64,000 nt of DNA from NCBI GenBank assembly GCA_036172245.1, contig JAYWIR010000029.1:1860001-1924000 (forward strand), written 5' to 3'. Shown here piece after piece: positions 7,604-62,200 of this stretch. Within the stretch, counting starts at the first letter, position 1. Each line of letters opens with the position of its first letter. Source of the stretch: Raillietiella orientalis (Eukaryota). A program made the position numbers and the translations under genes. The notes beneath the pieces are model-generated. The model did no database searches, had not been told where the DNA came from, and was given only the letters and a program-made list of their open reading frames with translations.

Positions 7604-9340
7604 AAGAGCACCCGAGTCAGGTGTTGACCAGCCTGCTAAGCGAGTTTGACGTTTTGAAGAGGCGCCACCGTGGTGCCTTTGGCGAATATATTACGCCCGG
7701 TGTGAAACAAAAAGAAATGCCCTTTGCTACTAAAATACGAAATTTTAGTGAATAGTTAAAACAATCTCACTTAAATAGTATATTTTAGTTGTATTTTCTT
7801 TGGGACTGCAACGTGACCTTATTTATTTTTTATTGAAGCAATGTGAGGTGTGGCAACCAAACAAAAACTTCCTCGCTTTCTTTTTCTTTCTACATGCTGG
7901 GTTTGTTTACATGTTCTTTACATAATGGAAGCCTTAATTGAGGAAAATAATAATAACGCTTCAATTATTTTCCTCAATGAAGGCTTCAAATGATTCGCTT
8001 TGGCAAAAAGTGATCTCTGTAAGGCATAAACGTAATTTTAATTCTCTCATTTTGAAGCTGACCAAGACATGACTTCAAGAAGAAGAATCCCTGAAACTGA
8101 AACTGCTTGGACAAATATTCAACATAAATGCGGATCCTTCTACATTCCAGAACAACACATTGTATTGGATGAATCATTGTCGTCATGGAAAGGGAGATTG
8201 TCTTGGAAGCAGTAGATGTACCTTCTAAAAGGAGTCGTTCGGGAATAAAAAATTGTTGCCTTATGCGAAAATCAAGCTGAATACATTTGGAATTTCTGTG
8301 CATACATTGGCAAAAATACAGAACATGGTCAGCATTATCCTCAGTGTAAGACCGCAACTCCATCGTTCTTGAACTTTCTCATGACCTTTTAGGCCAGGGA
8401 TATCAATTCTGTCTGGATAACTGGTACATAAGTACAGAACTCGCACAGAAACCATGTACTTGCAAGGAAGACAGTATTGGTACAATGCTACAGCATAGAC
8501 TTGGTATTCCTGAAGACATGAAAACCACTTCTCTAAAGAAAGGTCAGTACATTGCAAGATATAACAACGAAATAATGGATTGAAGGGGGGGGGGGCAAAA
8601 GGGATGTACAGTTCCTCAGTACGATACACGGCGCCAATGTGATGGATGCAGAGGAACGAGGTGTTGTAAAAGGAAAGCGTAAAGTGGTTTTTGAGTAGGG
8701 AAAAAAAAATGGATGGAGTGTACAGAAGCGATGGTACAATTGGAGCACATACGCTGGCAAGAAAGAGGCTAAAGAAATATTACAGGAAAATATTTCTTCA
8801 TCTTTTCGACGTTATGCGCTTGAATCCATATTTATTATATGAAAAATACAATGCGAAATGAAATCGATTCGATTTTTTTGCTCGAGTGTATGGAACAACT
8901 TATTGAGGAATCTTCCCCTGAGGCAACTGGGACAGCTGGTGGACCAGCTGCGATTGCCAAGCCCACACGTCTCTCCGGACAACCTTTTCCAAATTCTATA
9001 CCATGTACACCATCCAAATGGAGTGCCTCTCGAAGGTGTATGTGTCGTGTGTTCCGAAAACGGCATTCGTCAGGAAAGACGATGTCGGCGCTGAACCTGC
9101 GAGATGCCCCTTCGTGTGGACTGTGGCTTTGAAGAAGAGCGTCTTGCAAAATCAGATGGAATTTCTCAAGACTTTTTCATTTTTCTTATGTAGGAAGTTT
9201 CCTATTTTCTGTACAATAACAGAGTTCCTATGAATCCAATTTTTTTCCTTTTCTCTCCACACAAAAAGTTGCTTTTGCCGTGCGTTTGACGTGTCTATTC
9301 GTTTTCTCCCATTTTAATTCACGCACCCACGGGTGCTCTT
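7604..9340 (+). mobile_element. Decayed piggyBac (PGBD4-like) DNA transposon
   Basis: Frameshifted transposase motifs FYIPEQHIVLDESLSSWKGRLSWKQ, PSKRSR, YIWNF..YIGK, GQGYQFCLDNWY, KYYRKIFLHLFD and a Cys-rich C-terminus (~8130-9120); flanked by an 11-bp inverted repeat AAGAGCACCCG (7604-7614) / CGGGTGCTCTT (9330-9340). Confidence 0.9.
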
Positions 9341-9636
9341 TGGAAACAAAAAAAAAGGAATTGCTCGCTTAGCAGACTGGAGCTCGTTCTCGGGGTTAGA
9401 CGGGAAGAAAACTTTCACTTGCATCATCCTTCGCTCTGTTGACTCTCCGAAATGTTTTTACCCCACATTTCACCCTTTTCTTTATCGGGGATAGGAAATC
9501 CCAAAGCCACGGGCGTGCAAGGCCGTCTAACGAGATAGAGAAAGGGAGGTTCCCTTTGTTCGAGGACACTCCCGTAGAACAGCGGCGAAGCCACAGCACT
9601 CCGTTCCGTTTACTGTTACCTGAGGATACATTGAGG

Positions 9637-10185
9637 ATGGTTCCCGCTCTTGCCATCTGCATCATCCAGCTACTGTTCGTTCCAGGTGGGAAAGCTCAGT
9701 TCGGAAATTTCGGAAATTTGATACAGCTCTCCAACAACGACTGGAAAAAGCTGTTAAACGACCAGGCCCTTGTCAACCGCCAGCTTGCGTGCGTCAAAGG
9801 ACACGGTCCATGCGATCGTCTGGGGAAAGATCTGAGAAGTGAGTACTGGCATGCGGTGTGGCTGGGGAGATGACAGCGCTTGTTTGTTGACTCGAATGGG
9901 TGCGGTGGCAGGGCATGCGCACCTACCCGTTCCCGGGCGGCGGTGGGAGGAGGGCGGGGAGAAGGCACGAGACCCACGACGTGTTCTAAAATCCGCGAAA
10001 AATGTTCCGCAGTTGGGCTGACATGCTACTGTGAATGCCGCCGAAGAGGCCGCTGCGAGTCGTGCAGCGTTTACCCCGACAATCCGAGGAAGATACTCAT
10101 GGCCGCCGACCGTTTCCTCCAGACAGTGCAGGCGTCCAACCACATTCGCCTGAAGCAGGAGCTCGGGAAGAAAATATGCCGCTAA
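9637..10185 (+). CDS. Chemosensory protein (CSP/OS-D)-like, atypical 8-Cys form; exons 9637-9838 and 10013-10185, 124 aa
   Basis: Signal peptide MVPALAICIIQLLFVPGGKA, CSP-type LLND.ALV.RQLACVKGHGPCDRLGKDLR, phase-1 GT-AG intron at the usual CSP position, exon 2 IGLTCYCECRRRGRCESC...KKICR*. Confidence 0.85.
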
Positions 10186-10699
10186 CCGCCGCCGCCGATC
10201 ACTACTGGGAAAGGAAGCAAGGGGAGGAGGAGGAGGAAGAAGGAAAAAAAAAGAGAGGGGTCAACCGTGCAGTAGTTATGCAAAGGTTAAGCCGTATAAT
10301 TATAGCGCACACACTTCTTGGTTCCCTTACACGTTGAGCGCACGTGTGCAGTCGTGCACGCATGCGTGCAAGAGGACGTACCTGTGCGCGTGCGTGCGTG
10401 CAAGCGCGGGTGCCAACCCTGAGCTCGGGATGTCGCGCGTTGAGTGGGAGGAGCCGGGAGACGCCTTGCGAGAACGTGGGCGCACGCGCGCCACTTGGTG
10501 ACCTGACGCGTTCCGGGCGCGCCGCTTGGCGCACGTTTTGCCCCTCTGCCCCTTGTCCAAGAGGAAAACCCACCGGGCTGGCCAGAACGCACGAGCGGTG
10601 GGCACGCCTGCGTCCGCTGACGAAACGGGACGCGACGGCGGGCTCTGCACCCAGCACCTAGGGATCGTTCCCTCACAGCCTGACCTCCCCGTTCCGAAA

Positions 10700-11700
10700 C
10701 GGCACACCTGTCTAAGCGCGGGAAGGAAGTGAGCGGGATGCCCTGAGGGAGTGCTTGGCAGGGTCCTTCCTCGCATCCCCATAGGGATGCGAGAAAAGTC
10801 CGGAATTGAGGTTCTATCCCTTACCCTTCCAAACGTCAGCATTTCGCGGCGGTGCCGTCGGAAGGAAAAGGCAAGGAGGAGAGGGAGAGGGGAAGGAAGG
10901 GGAGGATGTGCGGACAATCTGCTTCAACGGGAGAGAGATCCGGGACTCCAGGGTGTGGAGCAGGTGCCTCTTCGGAGGCAAAGGAAGAAAGAACACCTCT
11001 TGCAGAGGGACGTATCCACGGTGCTGCAGCTTCGTCTCCAAGACGCTCAGCTTCTTGACCAGCCATCGCCGTCTTCAGTTCGTGAAGCGCCACAGTTTTG
11101 CGGTGAACGCGTGGGCTCCTGGCCGCGCACCGCCACGTGGGTCTGGGCGCCGCCGACACGTGCAGTGACACGCAGTCCTTCGGCGCTCTCCGGTTGCCCT
11201 CGGCAACCTGACCGAAGAGCTGGAGCCTCCCTGGCAGCACTTGGGAGGAAAGCCTTCCTGGTTTCCGAGCTCATCATTTCGGGAGACGGGGACCGCGAGG
11301 GAGTTCCGGAGCTTCGCTTCCCGAGGAGACCCCTGGGAAGCGCGGCCAGTCCTTCGGAGCTCCTTGCAGCCGGCGTGGGCGCGCCCTGCCTTGCGGCCAT
11401 CTTCGTGGGTCCAGGTCCTCCTGCCTGTCCCCCTCAGGAGGAGGAGGAGCAGGGGGAAAATGAACTGGGACGGAGGTCCCGAGCCCTACATCGCCTGCCG
11501 CTCTCTTCCCTCCGGCGAATCTTTGCTGCGCACCACATCGTCTGGCAGGGGGGAGTTCGGAAGGCGTCGTCTGGATGATGGGAGTCCGGGAGGTCTCAGG
11601 GGACGGACGGGGACTCCTGGCGCAGGGCCGTCGACGAAGGCACCGCGAGGAACCCCGCCTAGGTCATCCTACAGGAAGCGCGCGAGTCCCCTAGGTGACA
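10700..11700 (-). mobile_element. Possible decayed LINE RT fragment between the two CSP-like genes
   Basis: Minus-strand SQGSP (~11325-11340), then an ADD-like segment (~11175) and a coding-like stretch WLVKKLSVLETKL interrupted by a stop; weak support. Confidence 0.3.
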
Positions 11701-12307
11701 ACTCCCCTGTCCCCCCTCCTTGTGCTAAACGCCGGCGGGGCCAGAGGAGTGAAGCAGTCGCCACGGCAGCAGCGGCGGCGGCGGCGTCCGAGTTGCCCTC
11801 GAGAACTACCTCCGAGCCGAAGGGAGCCGAGTTGTTCATCCTGGTGGCGGTCCACGCAGCACCGTCAAGGACCGCCGCCATCGCCGCCCATCAAGCACGA
11901 GGTCGCCGGACCGCCGTTCTTCTGCCGTGGGCGAAGCGGGGAATGGAACTCCACCAGCCGCTCTGCCCAGGCTCTGACTCCGTGTAGGAGGCTCCGCGCC
12001 CACGTCAGGGAATCTGTCGATCCGGAAAGGAGGTCGGCCGTAGCTCGCATCGGCCATGAGGCTTCCGCAGCTGATGGGCCAAAAGGAAGGCTGGATGGAG
12101 ATCCTCTTCTCTGGAGATCCCGTCGAGTCCGACGCAAATTTCCCTCCCTGCATGTTCCGGGCCACCGAGAGCGCGGGGCGGTCGTTCCCCTCCCGCCGCC
12201 CTCGTTCCCCCTCACTTGTACTCTGCCTCCTCCTCCTCCTCTTTTTTCTTCCTCTCCGAGCATTAGCGCGTCCCCTCCTGACGCGAAGAGAAGGACGGGC
12301 GGAGGCA

Positions 12308-12879
12308 TCAGTAGCAAAGGTTCCTCCGGAAGATCTTCTTGACGGAGGGGTCGCCATTCTTGCGGGCGGCTTCCACGTAGCGGTCGGCGACGCGGATGAA
12401 CTCGGCGGGATCTCCCTGGATGACCTCGCAGCTGTCGCAGCGGCCGCGGCGCCGGCAGTCGCAGTAGCAGTACAGGATCTCTGGAAGGAAGGAGAGGGGA
12501 GGGGGGAAAGCAGGCGGTGATGCGGGCGGAGGAGGAGGAGGAAGAGGCCACGCCCGTGTGCAGGTGCGCCGCTGCCCTCGCGGGACTCGGGAGGGGTGGG
12601 GGACGAGGAAGAGAGGTACTCACTCTTCAGCTCCACGCCCAGGTCGTTGCAGTCACCTCCCTGCAGGCACACCACGTGCTTGTCCACCAGCCCGTGATCC
12701 TTCACGTACACTTCCAGCGCCTCCAGCGAGCCGTTGACCTCCTTCAGGATGGAGGAGATCCCTGGTAGGTCGGCGTGGACGGCTGCAAACGAAGCGGGGG
12801 GGAGTGTCGATGCGTCCTCGGTGCTCCCGAGGCGCAGGAGCGCCGGGAGGACAAGACAGAGCATCCGTCCCGCGAGCAT
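12308..12879 (-). CDS. Second atypical 8-Cys CSP-like protein; exons 12879-12624 and 12480-12308, 142 aa
   Basis: Signal peptide MLAGRMLCLVLPALLRLGST, YVKDHGLVDKHVVCLQGGDCNDLGVELK, phase-1 intron GTGAGT..TTCCAG, exon 2 KILYCYCDCRRRGRCDSC...RRNLCY*; exon 2 is 173 nt, the same as in the first copy. Confidence 0.85.
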
Positions 12880-13859
12880 ATCCACGGTAACGCACCTTCT
12901 GGACCTTCTGTCGGCAGCCACGACGGCAGTCGAGCTGACTGGCGGGGAGGGGCCCTCGTGGCGTTTCCGGAGGGGACGAGTTGGGGAGGGGCATCGGAAG
13001 GAGACCTGCGAAGGTCGTTCACACGCGCACGCTCGCGCGCGCGCACGTGGCGGCGGCAGCGGATTTTCGCTCCGCACGAGTCCCTTCGGTGCGACTCCGC
13101 CGCCAACCCCTGGCGTGGAGCAGCTTCGGGATCCTCCAGGAAAGGCGCGGCCCCCTTCCAGAAAGGGAGGCTTTCGCGGAAAGGCTCCCCACGCTGCCGA
13201 TGGAGCGCTTGCTTCCCTCCCTCTCCCGTGATGCCCCCCGGATCTGCACTGGCAGGAAGATCCTCCGCGCAAGCGCCGCCGCAAACCTCCCTCCCCACTC
13301 CCCAGGGCGCGTCCGGCCTTGAGGCGGCGACTCAACCCCTTCCCCCTCCTCCTCCTCCTCCTCCTCCTCCTCCTTTTCCCGCAGAGCTCTCGGGAGGATC
13401 CCTTTCGTCGCCTCGGGATCTCAGCAGGGAAGCCACCAGTAGGGCGGGATCTCCCCCACCTCACCCACTATGAAGTGACCTCGCAGCTCCTCCAGGATCC
13501 AGCGCACCGCACTTGTCCGCTTCCTCCCTCATCCAGGAGCGCGACCCCAATGGGACGCCTCTTTCGCGAGCTCGGAGGGGCGAGGAGGCTATGCACCGCT
13601 CCCAGGCTCCCCGGTAGCAGCTTCCAATCCGGAATTTTCGGGTAGAGGCTGGAAAGGTGCTTTCCTTCGGAAAACCGGGAATGATCGCGGCTTCCCTGCG
13701 ACCAAGCGCATCCGGCGGACCCGCGAGTTTTTTTCGCGCGCGTTAGGCTGTTCCCCTTCCTCTCTAAGAAAGGTGAGGGCGCGTCCCCCCACGTCCATGT
13801 GGGTGTGCGATCCACCTTTCCCTCCCCTTCTTCCTTCCTTCCTCCAAGAAGAGGAAGAG

Positions 13860-29826: not shown

Positions 29827-30691
29827 TTACATCTTGCACAAAGTATCTCTTAAATTTTCCAAATCACAAACTTGACCAAGTGCTTTAACTGGGTCCATTG
29901 AAATAAAGTTTTCCAAATTGTTTTTGCATTCTGGTCACAAAAAGTTTTTTATAAAGTTTACTGTGAAACTTACCTGCTGTGCTTATGCAAGAATATAGGG
30001 GAGGATCTTGTATCCAAGACCCATCAGCATGCTTCATGTGTGAACGATCAGAAGCAAATGTTTGAAGAAAAACATTAGCTGATATCACATGGAAAAAACA
30101 CTTATATTGTCTTGGAAGTCCAGTCAGCTGAGAGAATGTTGCCTTCACATATTCCTCCAATAGAACAGGAAATGGAAGTTTAGAATCAAAATCATAAACG
30201 CTGATGCTTTGCTGCTTTTTCTCAACCAAAATACAGTGGTAGTCCTGTTGGAACCCAATGTGTTCAACATAACAAGTTTTATTCTTACCCAAATAATGGG
30301 TTCTTTGTCTCTACATTTCTTTTGATTCCACAAAGGTACTTGTTTCTCACAATTTGATATAAAAACAACATAGAATTCATGCAATCTGTTTGTGTTTTGG
30401 GTAGATATTTTTTCACATAACTTCCATATATTTTCTTCACTTAGGTAAATTTAGGTCATTCATTTGAATAATGAGTAATTGTTACATGCATTGTCAGATA
30501 ATGAATAAAAATCATTTAAATTTAAAATTTTGGTCTGATAATTGTAAAACTATATGGATTCAGAAGTTCATGAAGATTGAACTTAATGAGACAATACAAT
30601 AACTGTAAGTAAACTTCAATTACCAGTAATATGGAGTATATTCACAATGTTCCAGTCTCAAATTTTCCAACATTCTCTTTTCTTCTACCAT
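29827..30691 (-). CDS. NTAQ1: Protein N-terminal glutamine amidohydrolase; exons 30691-30624, 30439-30289, 30244-29974, 29930-29827, 197 aa
   Basis: YTPYYCEENIWKLC, VVFISN..KQVPLW, IIWDYHCI, VYDFDSKLPFP, FASDRSHM motifs; Cys-His-Asp triad intact; phase-consistent GT-AG joins. Confidence 0.95.
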
Positions 30692-59201: not shown

Positions 59202-62200
59202 TCACTCATCCAACACAAAATTGGGATGACAGACCAATAGAGGATCATCAGCCTGCTCCTCCCCTATGTGGGCTTTCTGCGTCAAAGGAATGATTACCTG
59301 ATCCTGATGAAAACAAAACATGTGATGAGAAATACAAATTTACACTCACTTGATAAATCAGCCTATCAAGCACCTTCTCCACCAACAGCTTACGTTGCAA
59401 CAGTTCAGCTTCTGATTCCAGTTCAGCTTGTATTTCATTCAGGTACCAGTTGACCACCTGGCTACGACGTAAACCTGCTTCACCACCACTTTCTGCCTTC
59501 CATCATTAAGTGCCAATTAAATTGCGTTTTTTACCTTCTTTGGCTTCTTCAGCACGTAGATGCAATACTAGCAAAGTGGACATGGCTTTGTACTCTTTAA
59601 AAGACAATCTTAAAATATGACGAGATGAATCTGGGGTCCGTGGTGTTGGAGGCAGACCTTTGAATAGGATAGATAAGATAATTCCAGGGAAAAATATACT
59701 TACTGTCATGATCCTCACTCATCATGGTGTCATTGGCATCTGCATCTTCTTCATCCTCAAAAGCTACATCAGGCTGCTCCACACGTACCAATGATTTACT
59801 CAGTAGCCGGCATGCTTCCCTTGCATGGCGTGGAAGCACTTCATCACAGCAATGAAGCCTAGCCATCGCTTCCGAAAGACGTATCATAGATTCTAGCTGC
59901 CGCACTGTGACCCGCCATGCTGAGCGAAATGAACCACCAGCATCACGCTGACGCAATTGTCGGTACTGTTCAACCAGATACTTGCTAGTGCTGGCTGTAA
60001 TCCGAGGTCGGAATTGGCGGGCAAACAAGAGATAACGCTGAATCTCCTCAGTGGTGTACACTTGTTCCAGAGGACGGCCTACACCACTATGCAAGTCAAC
60101 AATGCGCCTTGCAATAGCATAGTCTGTCACCTCATTGCATTCATCTACCAGCACAAAGAATAAATCAAACCGTGACATAATAGGTGCTGAAAGAGCCACA
60201 TTCTGCCGTAAGGACTTTGTACGATCATAGTGACCACCAACAGGATTGGCAGCAGCTAGAATAGAAGTGCGGGCATTCAAAGTGGCCTGTACTCCAGCCT
60301 TGGTGATGGAAATGGTTTGTTGCTCCATAGCTTCATGTATGGCCACCTGATCTCGCAAATCCATTTTGTCAAATTCATCAATGCAACAAACTCCTCCATC
60401 AGCTAACATCAAAGCACCTGCTTCAATCACAAACTCTCCAGATTCTTCATCTCGAACTACAGCAGCAGTTAAACCAGCTGCACTGGAAGCTTTTCCTGAT
60501 GTGTAAATGGCACGTGGGATAAAATCAGCTACTCTCTTTAGCAACTGGGACTTTGCTGTACTAGGATCACCAACCACACAAACATTTATGTCCCCTCGAA
60601 GAGTAGTTCCTTCCTTGGTATGTTTAAGCACACCACCAAATAACATGAGCACAATGCCTCGCTTCACTTCATCATTTCCATGCACAGCTGGAAATAAGGA
60701 ACTAACTAAATGTTGATACAAGTTTGGATTTCTGCTCATTTCATAGACACGAGCCCATTCTGCGTCAGTCATTTGTCTTCGAATCACTTCTGCTGTTAAT
60801 TCTTCACTGCGGAAGTCTTGCCCACCTAGCTATTCTTCCTGAATTAAATCTCACCATCACTGCTCATACTTACTCTGATATGAGTCGGAGTCACACTGCA
60901 TGCTAGAAAGGCTAGGCGATAATTTAGTTCCCGCACACCCAAAGCTTTTAGTCCTCGAATGCCTTCAACTTCACGACCATCTTTCTGCTGCTGAGTATTT
61001 GTCTCAGAGCGTGCACCAGGTACAGACAGTGCACCAACATCAGGAATCACAATTAGAGTTCCTGTGAAATCACAACGATCTCCTGCTTGTGCCAACTCAA
61101 CAGCCTCAGCTCTCAAAATTACCTCAACACTTCATAACTTATTAGATTTTATGATGAGAATGCAGTCTTACCTGCGAGGAATGCACCCTCTGGGCAATTC
61201 AGATTGTGTTTCTTGAACCCGAACCTTCTGGAAGTCAACGAAGCGTGATTTACTGACTTCCAGTGAAAAACGAGTTCTGTTTTGACACACTGGATTGGCA
61301 CAAATGGTAGGTTGAGTATACTGACAGAATTGATTCCAGTGATGTTATACAGCACCACATTACCTTGAACTGTTGTTCCACATCTTTCATCTGTGTCTGG
61401 CAGTCCAAGCATGTAAATGTACCACTAACTAACTCTGGATGCACTGGGTGGGTGCGGACTACTTGACCAGCAATTTTCAACAAAGTTCCCAATTTTGTTG
61501 TGGAAAGCTCACGGACTTTATGACGCACAGGAACATCCACAAAGCTCACATAATATTCCTTATCGATGCGAACTTTCGCCTTCTGATGGACAAATTGGCA
61601 TACTGCATCACATAAATATGGATAAATTCTGGGAGGGAAGAGGAGGAGAAATGACAATAAAAAGTATTAGGGGTCTCTTTATGAATCTTACCGATAGTAA
61701 TCCTCTAGAATTATGGTGGATAATGTCTGATTATATTTTTCTACATCTTGAAAAGAAACTTGCAAAGTTTTCCTTTCTGGTTTGATTAATTCTTTAGCAT
61801 CCTCCAGATAATGCAATTCTCCCTCTACTTTGAATCTAGAAATAAATCCACATAAGAAACTGAAAAAACATTTAAAGATGTTTTTGCAATTTATCTACAA
61901 AGAGAATAATTTTGAACCCATAACTCTATTTTGCGAAAATTGTACACAGAACCAATGCACCATGAAACTGATGAAAGAGCAGTCAGACTCATATAGAAAC
62001 ATTTAATATTGCACACCTTAAATTTATCATCACAAACATTTGTGCTTTATTTCAGTATCACACCAATACTTTGTTATTGCATAAGGAGTTGAAACATTTC
62101 AAGATTCAGACATAGAAAATTCTTACTAAATTTGCTCAAAGTTCTCTACTTTACGTTTCTTTTTTTATAATTGTAAAATTCTTTAAACATTAAACACATA

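Follow-up and report, generated by a model that had tools for sequence, protein, structure and literature searches.

Chemosensory proteins (CSPs; the OS-D or A10 family) are described as four-Cys proteins without exception (PMC12940638, PMC13012876, PMC4145409 and PMC3665776), and a 2026 review proposes on this basis that the family be renamed '4CSP' (PMC12940638). Two short-range disulfides and a flexible helical body complete the usual description. The four Cys follow the signature C1-x6-8-C2-x18-19-C3-x2-C4 (PMC3149280), and the hallmark of CSP genes is a single intron one nucleotide after a conserved Lys codon (PMC3016857). In a figure legend of PMC12940638 this intron follows Lys45 and interrupts codon 46; C2 is residue 37 there, so that the site is C2+8. 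We analyzed two predicted genes, A and B, which lie tail to tail in a 64-kb stretch of contig JAYWIR010000029.1 (the window) and encode small proteins with eight instead of four Cys in the presumed mature chain. We consider it reasonably probable that they are old tandem paralogues from a branch of the arthropod CSP/OS-D/A10 family that is specific to this lineage, has diverged strongly and has two extra disulfides.

Cys beyond the canonical four have been described in two parasitoid wasps, Scleroderma guani and Nasonia vitripennis, whose six-Cys 'Plus-C CSP' has C5 downstream of C4, within helix 4, and C6 a further 33 residues on, at the C-terminus; an 'interlocking' third bridge between C5 and C6, running from the C-terminus back to helix 4, was proposed (PMC3149280). 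A 5-helical 'ancient' clade, comprising AmelCSP5 and all three Daphnia CSPs, is the class to which most non-insect arthropod CSPs belong; its members lack helix 6, contain 4 Cys and are highly conserved across arthropods (PMC3665776, PMC4145409). The Cys motifs of copepod CSPs are described as 'slightly less conserved' (PMC5850775). An analogy, and only that, is provided by the Plus-C odorant-binding proteins (OBPs), a recognized subclass with extra conserved Cys on a small helical carrier (PMC3149280, PMC13012876), which differ from A and B in fold and family and occur in insects only.

A preliminary description of the locus had taken four Cys as canonical for CSPs, in line with the literature cited above, and had asked whether the Cys pattern of A and B was already a known CSP class. 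The six-Cys Plus-C class is a partial precedent (PMC3149280), but no 8-Cys CSP class was found by full-text search, most subscription journals and supplements being outside its reach. The full texts that pair CSP with eight cysteines either concerned OBPs, as judged by title or abstract, or contained a passing mention in a paper on Drosophila efferocytosis. The spider CCP family was also considered, and its description (PMC5381604) offered no basis for comparison.

Gene structure and the eight-cysteine pattern

The gene models were built by reading the sequence of positions 9000-13500, followed by scripted extraction. Two convergent, two-exon genes with phase-1 introns were obtained, A on the plus strand and B on the minus strand, with GT-AG splice sites and the same exon junctions as in the preliminary description. 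The features are as follows (slashes mark exon-intron boundaries).

9637-10185, plus strand: gene A, whole; ATG at 9637, TAA stop, product of 124 amino acids
9637-9838, plus strand: gene A exon 1; 202 nt, 67 codons plus 1 nt
9839-10012, plus strand: gene A intron; 174 nt, donor GAA/GTGAGT, acceptor CCGCAG/, phase 1
10013-10185, plus strand: gene A exon 2; 173 nt including TAA, with a Cys/Arg-rich motif, two predicted helices and a penultimate Cys
10024-10065, plus strand: gene A motif, CYCECRRRGRCESC
12879-12308, minus strand: gene B, whole; ATG at 12879, TGA stop, product of 142 amino acids
12879-12624, minus strand: gene B exon 1; 256 nt, 85 codons plus 1 nt
12623-12481, minus strand: gene B intron; 143 nt, donor AGA/GTGAGT, phase 1; acceptor a pyrimidine-rich tract ending in ...CCTTCCAG/ (CCAG/)
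12480-12308, minus strand: gene B exon 2; 173 nt including TGA
12428-12469, minus strand: gene B motif, CYCDCRRRGRCDSC
10186-12307: spacer between the two stop codons; 2122 bp, 64% GC

A third copy was not found in the 64-kb window, either by six-frame regular expressions or by hidden Markov models of both exon pairs run over 1617 open reading frames (ORFs). The intron of gene A is a multiple of 3 in length and in frame with both exons, and it contains one TGA at 9871-9873; retention of this intron would therefore yield a truncated product of 78 residues without a frameshift.

Each precursor contains 9 Cys, one of which lies at residue 8 of the hydrophobic N-terminus, leaving 8 in the presumed mature chain. 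The first two are separated as C-x6-C in A and C-x5-C in B, and from C2 onwards the spacing is the same in both proteins (12, 1, 1, 5, 2 and 37 residues). The sole C-x2-C pair, which we number C3 and C4, is located 22 residues past C2, with three more Cys in between; another Cys is found near the C-terminus, and 39 residues follow C4 in both proteins. As the preliminary description had noted, four extra Cys are conserved between the diverged paralogues.

Most of this pattern resides in exon 2. The exon-2 translations of A and B aligned without gaps and were identical at 20/56 residues, including C4, Y5, C6, C8, R9, R10, R11, G12, R13, C14, S16 and C17, then A31, D32 and R33, and finally C55 (exon-2 numbering). 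The two proteins thus share the motif CYC[ED]CRRRGRC[ED]SC, the tripeptide ADR and a penultimate Cys, as had been noted together with the equal, 173-nt length of the two exons. None of 100,000 residue shuffles gave 20 identities, the best reaching 14. At the DNA level the two exons were 53% identical (92/173). Among the 14 codons of the motif, 7 were identical, 5 carried synonymous changes and 2 carried Glu/Asp changes, with proportions of synonymous (pS) and nonsynonymous (pN) differences of 0.53 and 0.16, respectively (dN/dS ~0.2); for the whole of exon 2, pS was 0.54 and pN was 0.44. These results indicate that the motif is under purifying selection. Only two inverted repeats of note were found between the genes, one of 35 nt (83% identity) in the motif and one of 27 nt (74%) at the exon-1/donor junction, and the introns did not align with each other. 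The pair is an old duplication in which selection has focused on the motif, and neither a recent copy nor a product of gene conversion.

The same comparison bears on whether A and B are genes at all. The models could be unexpressed, either as duplicates in decay or as ORFs that arose by chance in GC-rich DNA: B lies in a region of 65% GC with long ORFs in many frames, pN approaches pS in exon 2 outside the motif, and an AATAAA-type signal was not found within ~500 nt downstream of either stop codon. We regard this as quite unlikely, because the start codon, both splice sites, the intron phase, the exon length and the stop codon are all kept in both copies at 53% DNA identity. The low dN/dS of the motif and the shuffling result also speak against decay, as does the GC content of third codon positions, which was well above that of second positions in both genes (0.66 vs. 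0.40 in A and 0.86 vs. 0.42 in B).

Conservation of the clustered Cys and of the distal Cys between paralogues that are otherwise near saturation could also be explained by a metal site, in which the C-x-C-x-C-x5-C-x2-C cluster and the C-terminal Cys would bind zinc or another thiolate-bound metal instead of forming disulfides. Both proteins start with a hydrophobic, signal-like segment, and extracellular Cys are usually oxidized; moreover, the even count of 8 mature Cys suits four disulfides, and no metal-binding Pfam family was matched. Metal binding therefore appears highly improbable.

Affinity of the exon-1 half to chemosensory proteins

The intron position is the strongest single argument for an affinity to CSPs. 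In both genes the intron begins one nucleotide past the codon at C2+8, which encodes Arg in A (AGA A/GT) and Lys in B (AAG A/GT). The introns of A and B thus coincide precisely with the hallmark splice site of CSPs (PMC3016857, PMC12940638).

The exon-1 translations of A and B were 24% identical, and their 16 invariant columns cluster near the Cys loop. The C1-C2 loop is followed by LGKDLR in A and LGVELK in B, and gene B encodes ~16 additional residues behind the hydrophobic N-terminus. Residues 6-15 form a hydrophobic core in both proteins (mean hydropathy of 2.9 in A and 2.8 in B); in A, the maximum 10-residue hydropathy of 2.89 was reached at residue 6, and a signal peptide of approximately residues 1-20 is presumed. 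The presumed mature chains of 104 (A) and 123 (B) residues agree with the CSP plan of a signal peptide followed by a chain of ~100-120 residues. The Cys at residue 8 of both presumed signal peptides (9658-9660, plus strand; 12856-12858, minus strand) is among the few invariant N-terminal columns.

We then compared the proteins with known families by Pfam, Protein Data Bank (PDB), language-model and structure searches, all of which were run exon by exon. The only Pfam match of gene A exon 1 was OS-D (PF03392), with an E value of 0.014 and a score of 15.9 bits over profile positions 7-41 of 93. Against PDB sequences, the best match of the same exon was CSP3 of Anopheles culicifacies (9iw7; E = 0.32). 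When a profile of the two exon 1s was searched against 177,635 distinct PDB sequences, CSPs accounted for 2 of the top 3 matches (9iw7, E = 0.39; Bombyx CSP1, 2jnt, E = 1.2), and both alignments ran through G-x-E-L-K to the end of the profile, where exon 1 stops. Among language-model neighbours in the ESM Atlas, two OS-D clusters ranked top for the mature exon-1 part of A (0.77 and 0.75), and all of the 10 best neighbours with an assigned family were OS-D. The CSP affinity of the exon-1 half is thus suggested, weakly, by several concordant signals, each of which is below threshold. A word-indexed search with an alignment of the exon 1s covered proteins of 150-2000 amino acids, a range above the usual CSP size, and gave 1189 candidates, none of which reached E <= 10.

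Several results weigh against a CSP origin. The OS-D score of gene A lies below the Pfam gathering cut-off of 25 bits, the PDB E values of 0.3-1.2 are not significant singly, and an Atlas score below 0.9 is a lead only by the calibration of the tool. Gene B exon 1 and both exon 2s had no OS-D match at E <= 10 in Pfam, and gene B exon 1 alone had no CSP match among the PDB sequences. The Cys also depart from the four-Cys signature, as the C2-C3 spacing is 22 instead of 18-19 residues and the C-x5-C of B falls outside x6-8. A and B are not filed as ordinary CSPs, since they fall short of the Pfam cut-off and deviate from the strict Cys signature; they are CSP-like and probably CSP-derived. The preliminary description had called exon 1 that of a normal CSP; its N-terminus, C-x5/6-C loop, G-x-(D/E)-L-(K/R) sequence and phase-1 intron stand, but the score does not carry the claim, with A below threshold and B unmatched. 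The Pfam search that it had suggested likewise supported OS-D for gene A exon 1, below threshold, and for none of the other three exons.

Exon 2 yielded no credible relative in Pfam, the PDB, a set of representative proteins or a metagenome scan. A profile of the two exon 2s was searched against 1,835,955,588 representative proteins, and only two reached E <= 0.001. The first (P0001), a 10-repeat ZinT protein, matches the helical part only and was rejected as a demonstrated relative. The second (P0002), a metagenomic protein of 448 amino acids, was also rejected; its score adds up six weak stretches, and pairwise BLASTP gave an E value of 0.002. P0002 consists of six near-identical repeats of ~66 residues, each with C-F-C-V-C-x5-C followed by ...EPAEAAKL...NGAPYS, and the match is unproven because the score sums over these repeats. 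The repeat loosely parallels gene B exon 2 (C-Y-C-D-C-x5-C ...GDPAEF...NGDPS), a likeness that is equally unproven; its source label is Cas2 and its Pfam family DUF3801.

A word-indexed search of longer proteins with gene B exon 2 gave 4 candidates, none of which scored, and gene B exon 2 had no usable match in the ESM Atlas. A metagenome scan for the motif produced 387 pattern matches, 2 of which passed tblastn; both were rejected because they share just the searched RRRGRCESC, without CYCxC, and one of them (L002) has stop codons nearby. Among PDB sequences, the exon-2 profile matched designed helical-repeat proteins only, through ...ADRY.EAA.K.GDP..., and no CSP structure. These PDB matches suggest a helix-turn-helix character for exon 2, and nothing more. 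The searched protein collections do contain arthropod proteins, as shown by the search with the neighbouring STAT exon (see below), and annotated close relatives of A and B therefore appear to be absent from them. The failure of exon 2 to find a credible relative or a CSP structure adds to the points against a CSP origin.

A and B could instead belong to a separate family of small, secreted proteins rich in Cys that is restricted to this lineage, in which case the CSP likeness of exon 1 and the position of the intron would be coincidental or convergent. The uniformly sub-threshold CSP signals, the three exons without a CSP match, the broken canonical Cys spacing and the lack of relatives in the protein and metagenome searches would all be expected in that case. 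Against it, three different methods each ranked the same small family top for gene A exon 1, and the alignments end at an exon boundary that coincides, in both genes, with the hallmark intron in position and in phase (PMC3016857). The size, the signal-like N-terminus, C-x6-C and C-x2-C also agree with CSPs. We consider an independent origin rather unlikely.

Like classic CSPs (PF03392; 2jnt, 9iw7), A and B are small, two-exon genes with a phase-1 intron after Lys/Arg at C2+8 and a signal-like N-terminus in the product; C1-x6-C2 (in A only) is followed by G-x-(D/E)-L-(K/R), and a C-x2-C pair and helical predictions are shared as well. They differ from classic CSPs by 8 instead of 4 mature Cys, by a proposed replacement of the helix-3 segment and by an exon 2 with no detectable OS-D similarity. 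The proposal of a distinct CSP subfamily holds for the gene models, the conserved extra Cys and, below threshold, the affinity of exon 1, but finds no support in the similarity of exon 2.

Predicted architecture and possible functions

AlphaFold was used to predict the structures of the exon pairs. For the exon-1 pair, a signal helix and helices at residues 29-40 and 43-53 were predicted, with a predicted local distance difference test (pLDDT) score of 54.1; for the exon-2 pair, three helices were predicted at residues 2-11, 24-40 and 44-53 (mean pLDDT of 64.8). Both scores denote low confidence. The models would be compatible with five helices in all, and they are helical where CSP helices are expected, but they are too uncertain to serve as evidence of the CSP fold. 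A Foldseek search with the exon-2 model gave 0 matches, and in a wide VIA-align search with the same model the best Z was 3.9, the matches were generic helical pieces and no CSP was among the 50 matches listed. The low pLDDT scores and the fold searches without a specific match also weigh against a CSP origin. Structure prediction, which had been put forward as a test of the CSP fold and the disulfide pairing, therefore supplied helices exon by exon, but at low confidence and without recovering a CSP fold.

We propose the following architecture for a diverged CSP of this kind. Each gene would encode a secreted protein of ~100-125 residues, as the hydrophobic N-termini suggest. The exon-1 half would keep the N-terminal plan of CSPs, with two helices, a short loop closed by a C1-C2 disulfide, and the G-x-(D/E)-L-(K/R) sequence. 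The segment that forms helix 3 in ordinary CSPs would be replaced by C-Y-C-x-C-RRRGR, and the exon-2 half would keep C-x2-C and then two helices, the length of a 5-helix CSP, with one Cys added beside the C-terminus. The four extra Cys may form two further disulfides, one of which probably joins the penultimate Cys to the cluster where helix 4 begins. By geometric reasoning, helix 5 would run antiparallel to helix 4, so the C-terminus would be brought back to the start of helix 4, and the bridge proposed for the Plus-C CSP provides an analogy for such a link. The outcome would be a small carrier, presumably for hydrophobic ligands, that is more rigid and exposes a polybasic loop.

This architecture can be set against the two CSP variants described above. 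Like the Plus-C CSP, A and B have Cys beyond the canonical four, one of them at the C-terminus. They do not belong to the SguaCSP1 type, as they have 8 Cys and three of the extra Cys lie upstream of C3, beside the polybasic loop. With the 5-helical clade (PMC3665776, PMC4145409) they share a short C-terminal part, with 39 residues and two predicted helices after C-x2-C in A and B, and they differ from it in being orphans with 8 Cys. The 39 residues after C4 would suit a 5-helix rather than a 6-helix CSP, judged by the description of the 5-helical clade in PMC3665776.

The polybasic loop allows for another use of a CSP-derived scaffold. RRRGR is unchanged at the protein level even though 3 of its 5 codons carry synonymous changes, and it contains both R-x-x-R and RR, which are furin and dibasic consensus sites. 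The protein could be a secreted pro-protein, in which the Cys-bracketed RRRGR is a convertase site that gives rise to two chains held together by disulfides, or a cationic effector, in which RRRGR is a disulfide-stapled hairpin that binds polyanions or membranes; in the latter case its role would resemble host defence and not odorant transport. The loop resembles the Cys-stapled cationic hairpin peptides of chelicerates, and the exon-2 parts are basic (net charge of +7 in A and +5 in B), as is mature A overall (+10). However, mature B as a whole carries a negative net charge (-2), the flanking Cys may bar proteases from the loop, and in the low-confidence AlphaFold model the motif starts out in a helix and not in a hairpin. 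We judge a role as pro-protein or effector to be unlikely.

Taken further, a CSP scaffold whose third helix has been swapped for a Cys-stapled polybasic loop (CYCxC-RRRGR-CxxC) locked to the C-terminus might constitute a new functional class in a poorly sampled lineage allied to the arthropods, such as effectors that act against microbes or bind polyanions, or two-chain molecules processed by a convertase. We hold this to be improbable. If true, the rule of 'always four cysteines', on which the '4CSP' renaming is based, would no longer hold.

A conserved 8-Cys derivative would show that the CSP scaffold tolerates replacement of a whole helix as well as long-range cross-links. Such a derivative would parallel the Plus-C OBPs on the OBP fold and extend the single report of a 6-Cys Plus-C CSP. 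The gene pair would provide a natural experiment on how greater rigidity and the polybasic loop affect ligand binding or give rise to a new function; its practical value, limited at present, depends on evidence for expression, for the fold and for relatives in sister species.

Neighbourhood and host lineage

The window is metazoan, and the following features were identified elsewhere in it.

29885-30310, minus strand: N-terminal glutamine amidase ORF
48222-48650, plus strand: Tim44-like ORF, of the type found in mitochondrial ribosomal protein L45
52823-54406, plus strand: STAT exon; open frame of 527 codons with DNA-binding, linker and SH2 domains
59597-60829 and 61250-61666, minus strand: MCM6 exons with P-loop, lid and OB domains; best PDB matches human, Xenopus and Drosophila MCM6

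The STAT exon was used to place the host lineage. The best identity to any protein found was 48-51%, with spiders, centipedes, beetles, Daphnia and snails represented evenly at this level. A maximum-likelihood tree grouped it with 27 arthropod as opposed to 5 mollusc sequences (Shimodaira-Hasegawa-like approximate likelihood ratio test support of 95); there it is sister to the sampled arthropods as a whole, outside each of their classes, and its branch is very long (4.45). CSPs have been reported as arthropod-only (PMC5850775), and the dependence of the arthropod placement on one very long branch is a further point against a CSP origin. Judged from the sequence, the lineage is probably an arthropod or a close ally without a near relative in the protein collections. 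Poor representation of the lineage in these collections would explain the orphan look of genes A and B.

The Tim44-like and N-terminal glutamine amidase ORFs resemble ordinary housekeeping genes. The 64-kb window yielded neither Rfam families nor tRNAs. Two long ORFs in the spacer between A and B (10733-11575 and 11169-11984) had no Pfam family and were taken as GC-rich noise. The window is a mosaic in GC content, which ranges from 32% to 65% between adjacent 2-kb segments, and the gene pair lies at the edge of a GC-rich block. Purine-rich, (GGA)n-like tracts were observed past both stop codons, at 10205-10260 (~20-75 nt past that of A) and 12208-12260 (50-100 nt past that of B); they may be a shared feature of the 3' untranslated regions or just microsatellites. 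A long (CCT)n tract is located upstream of gene B, at 13336-13391.

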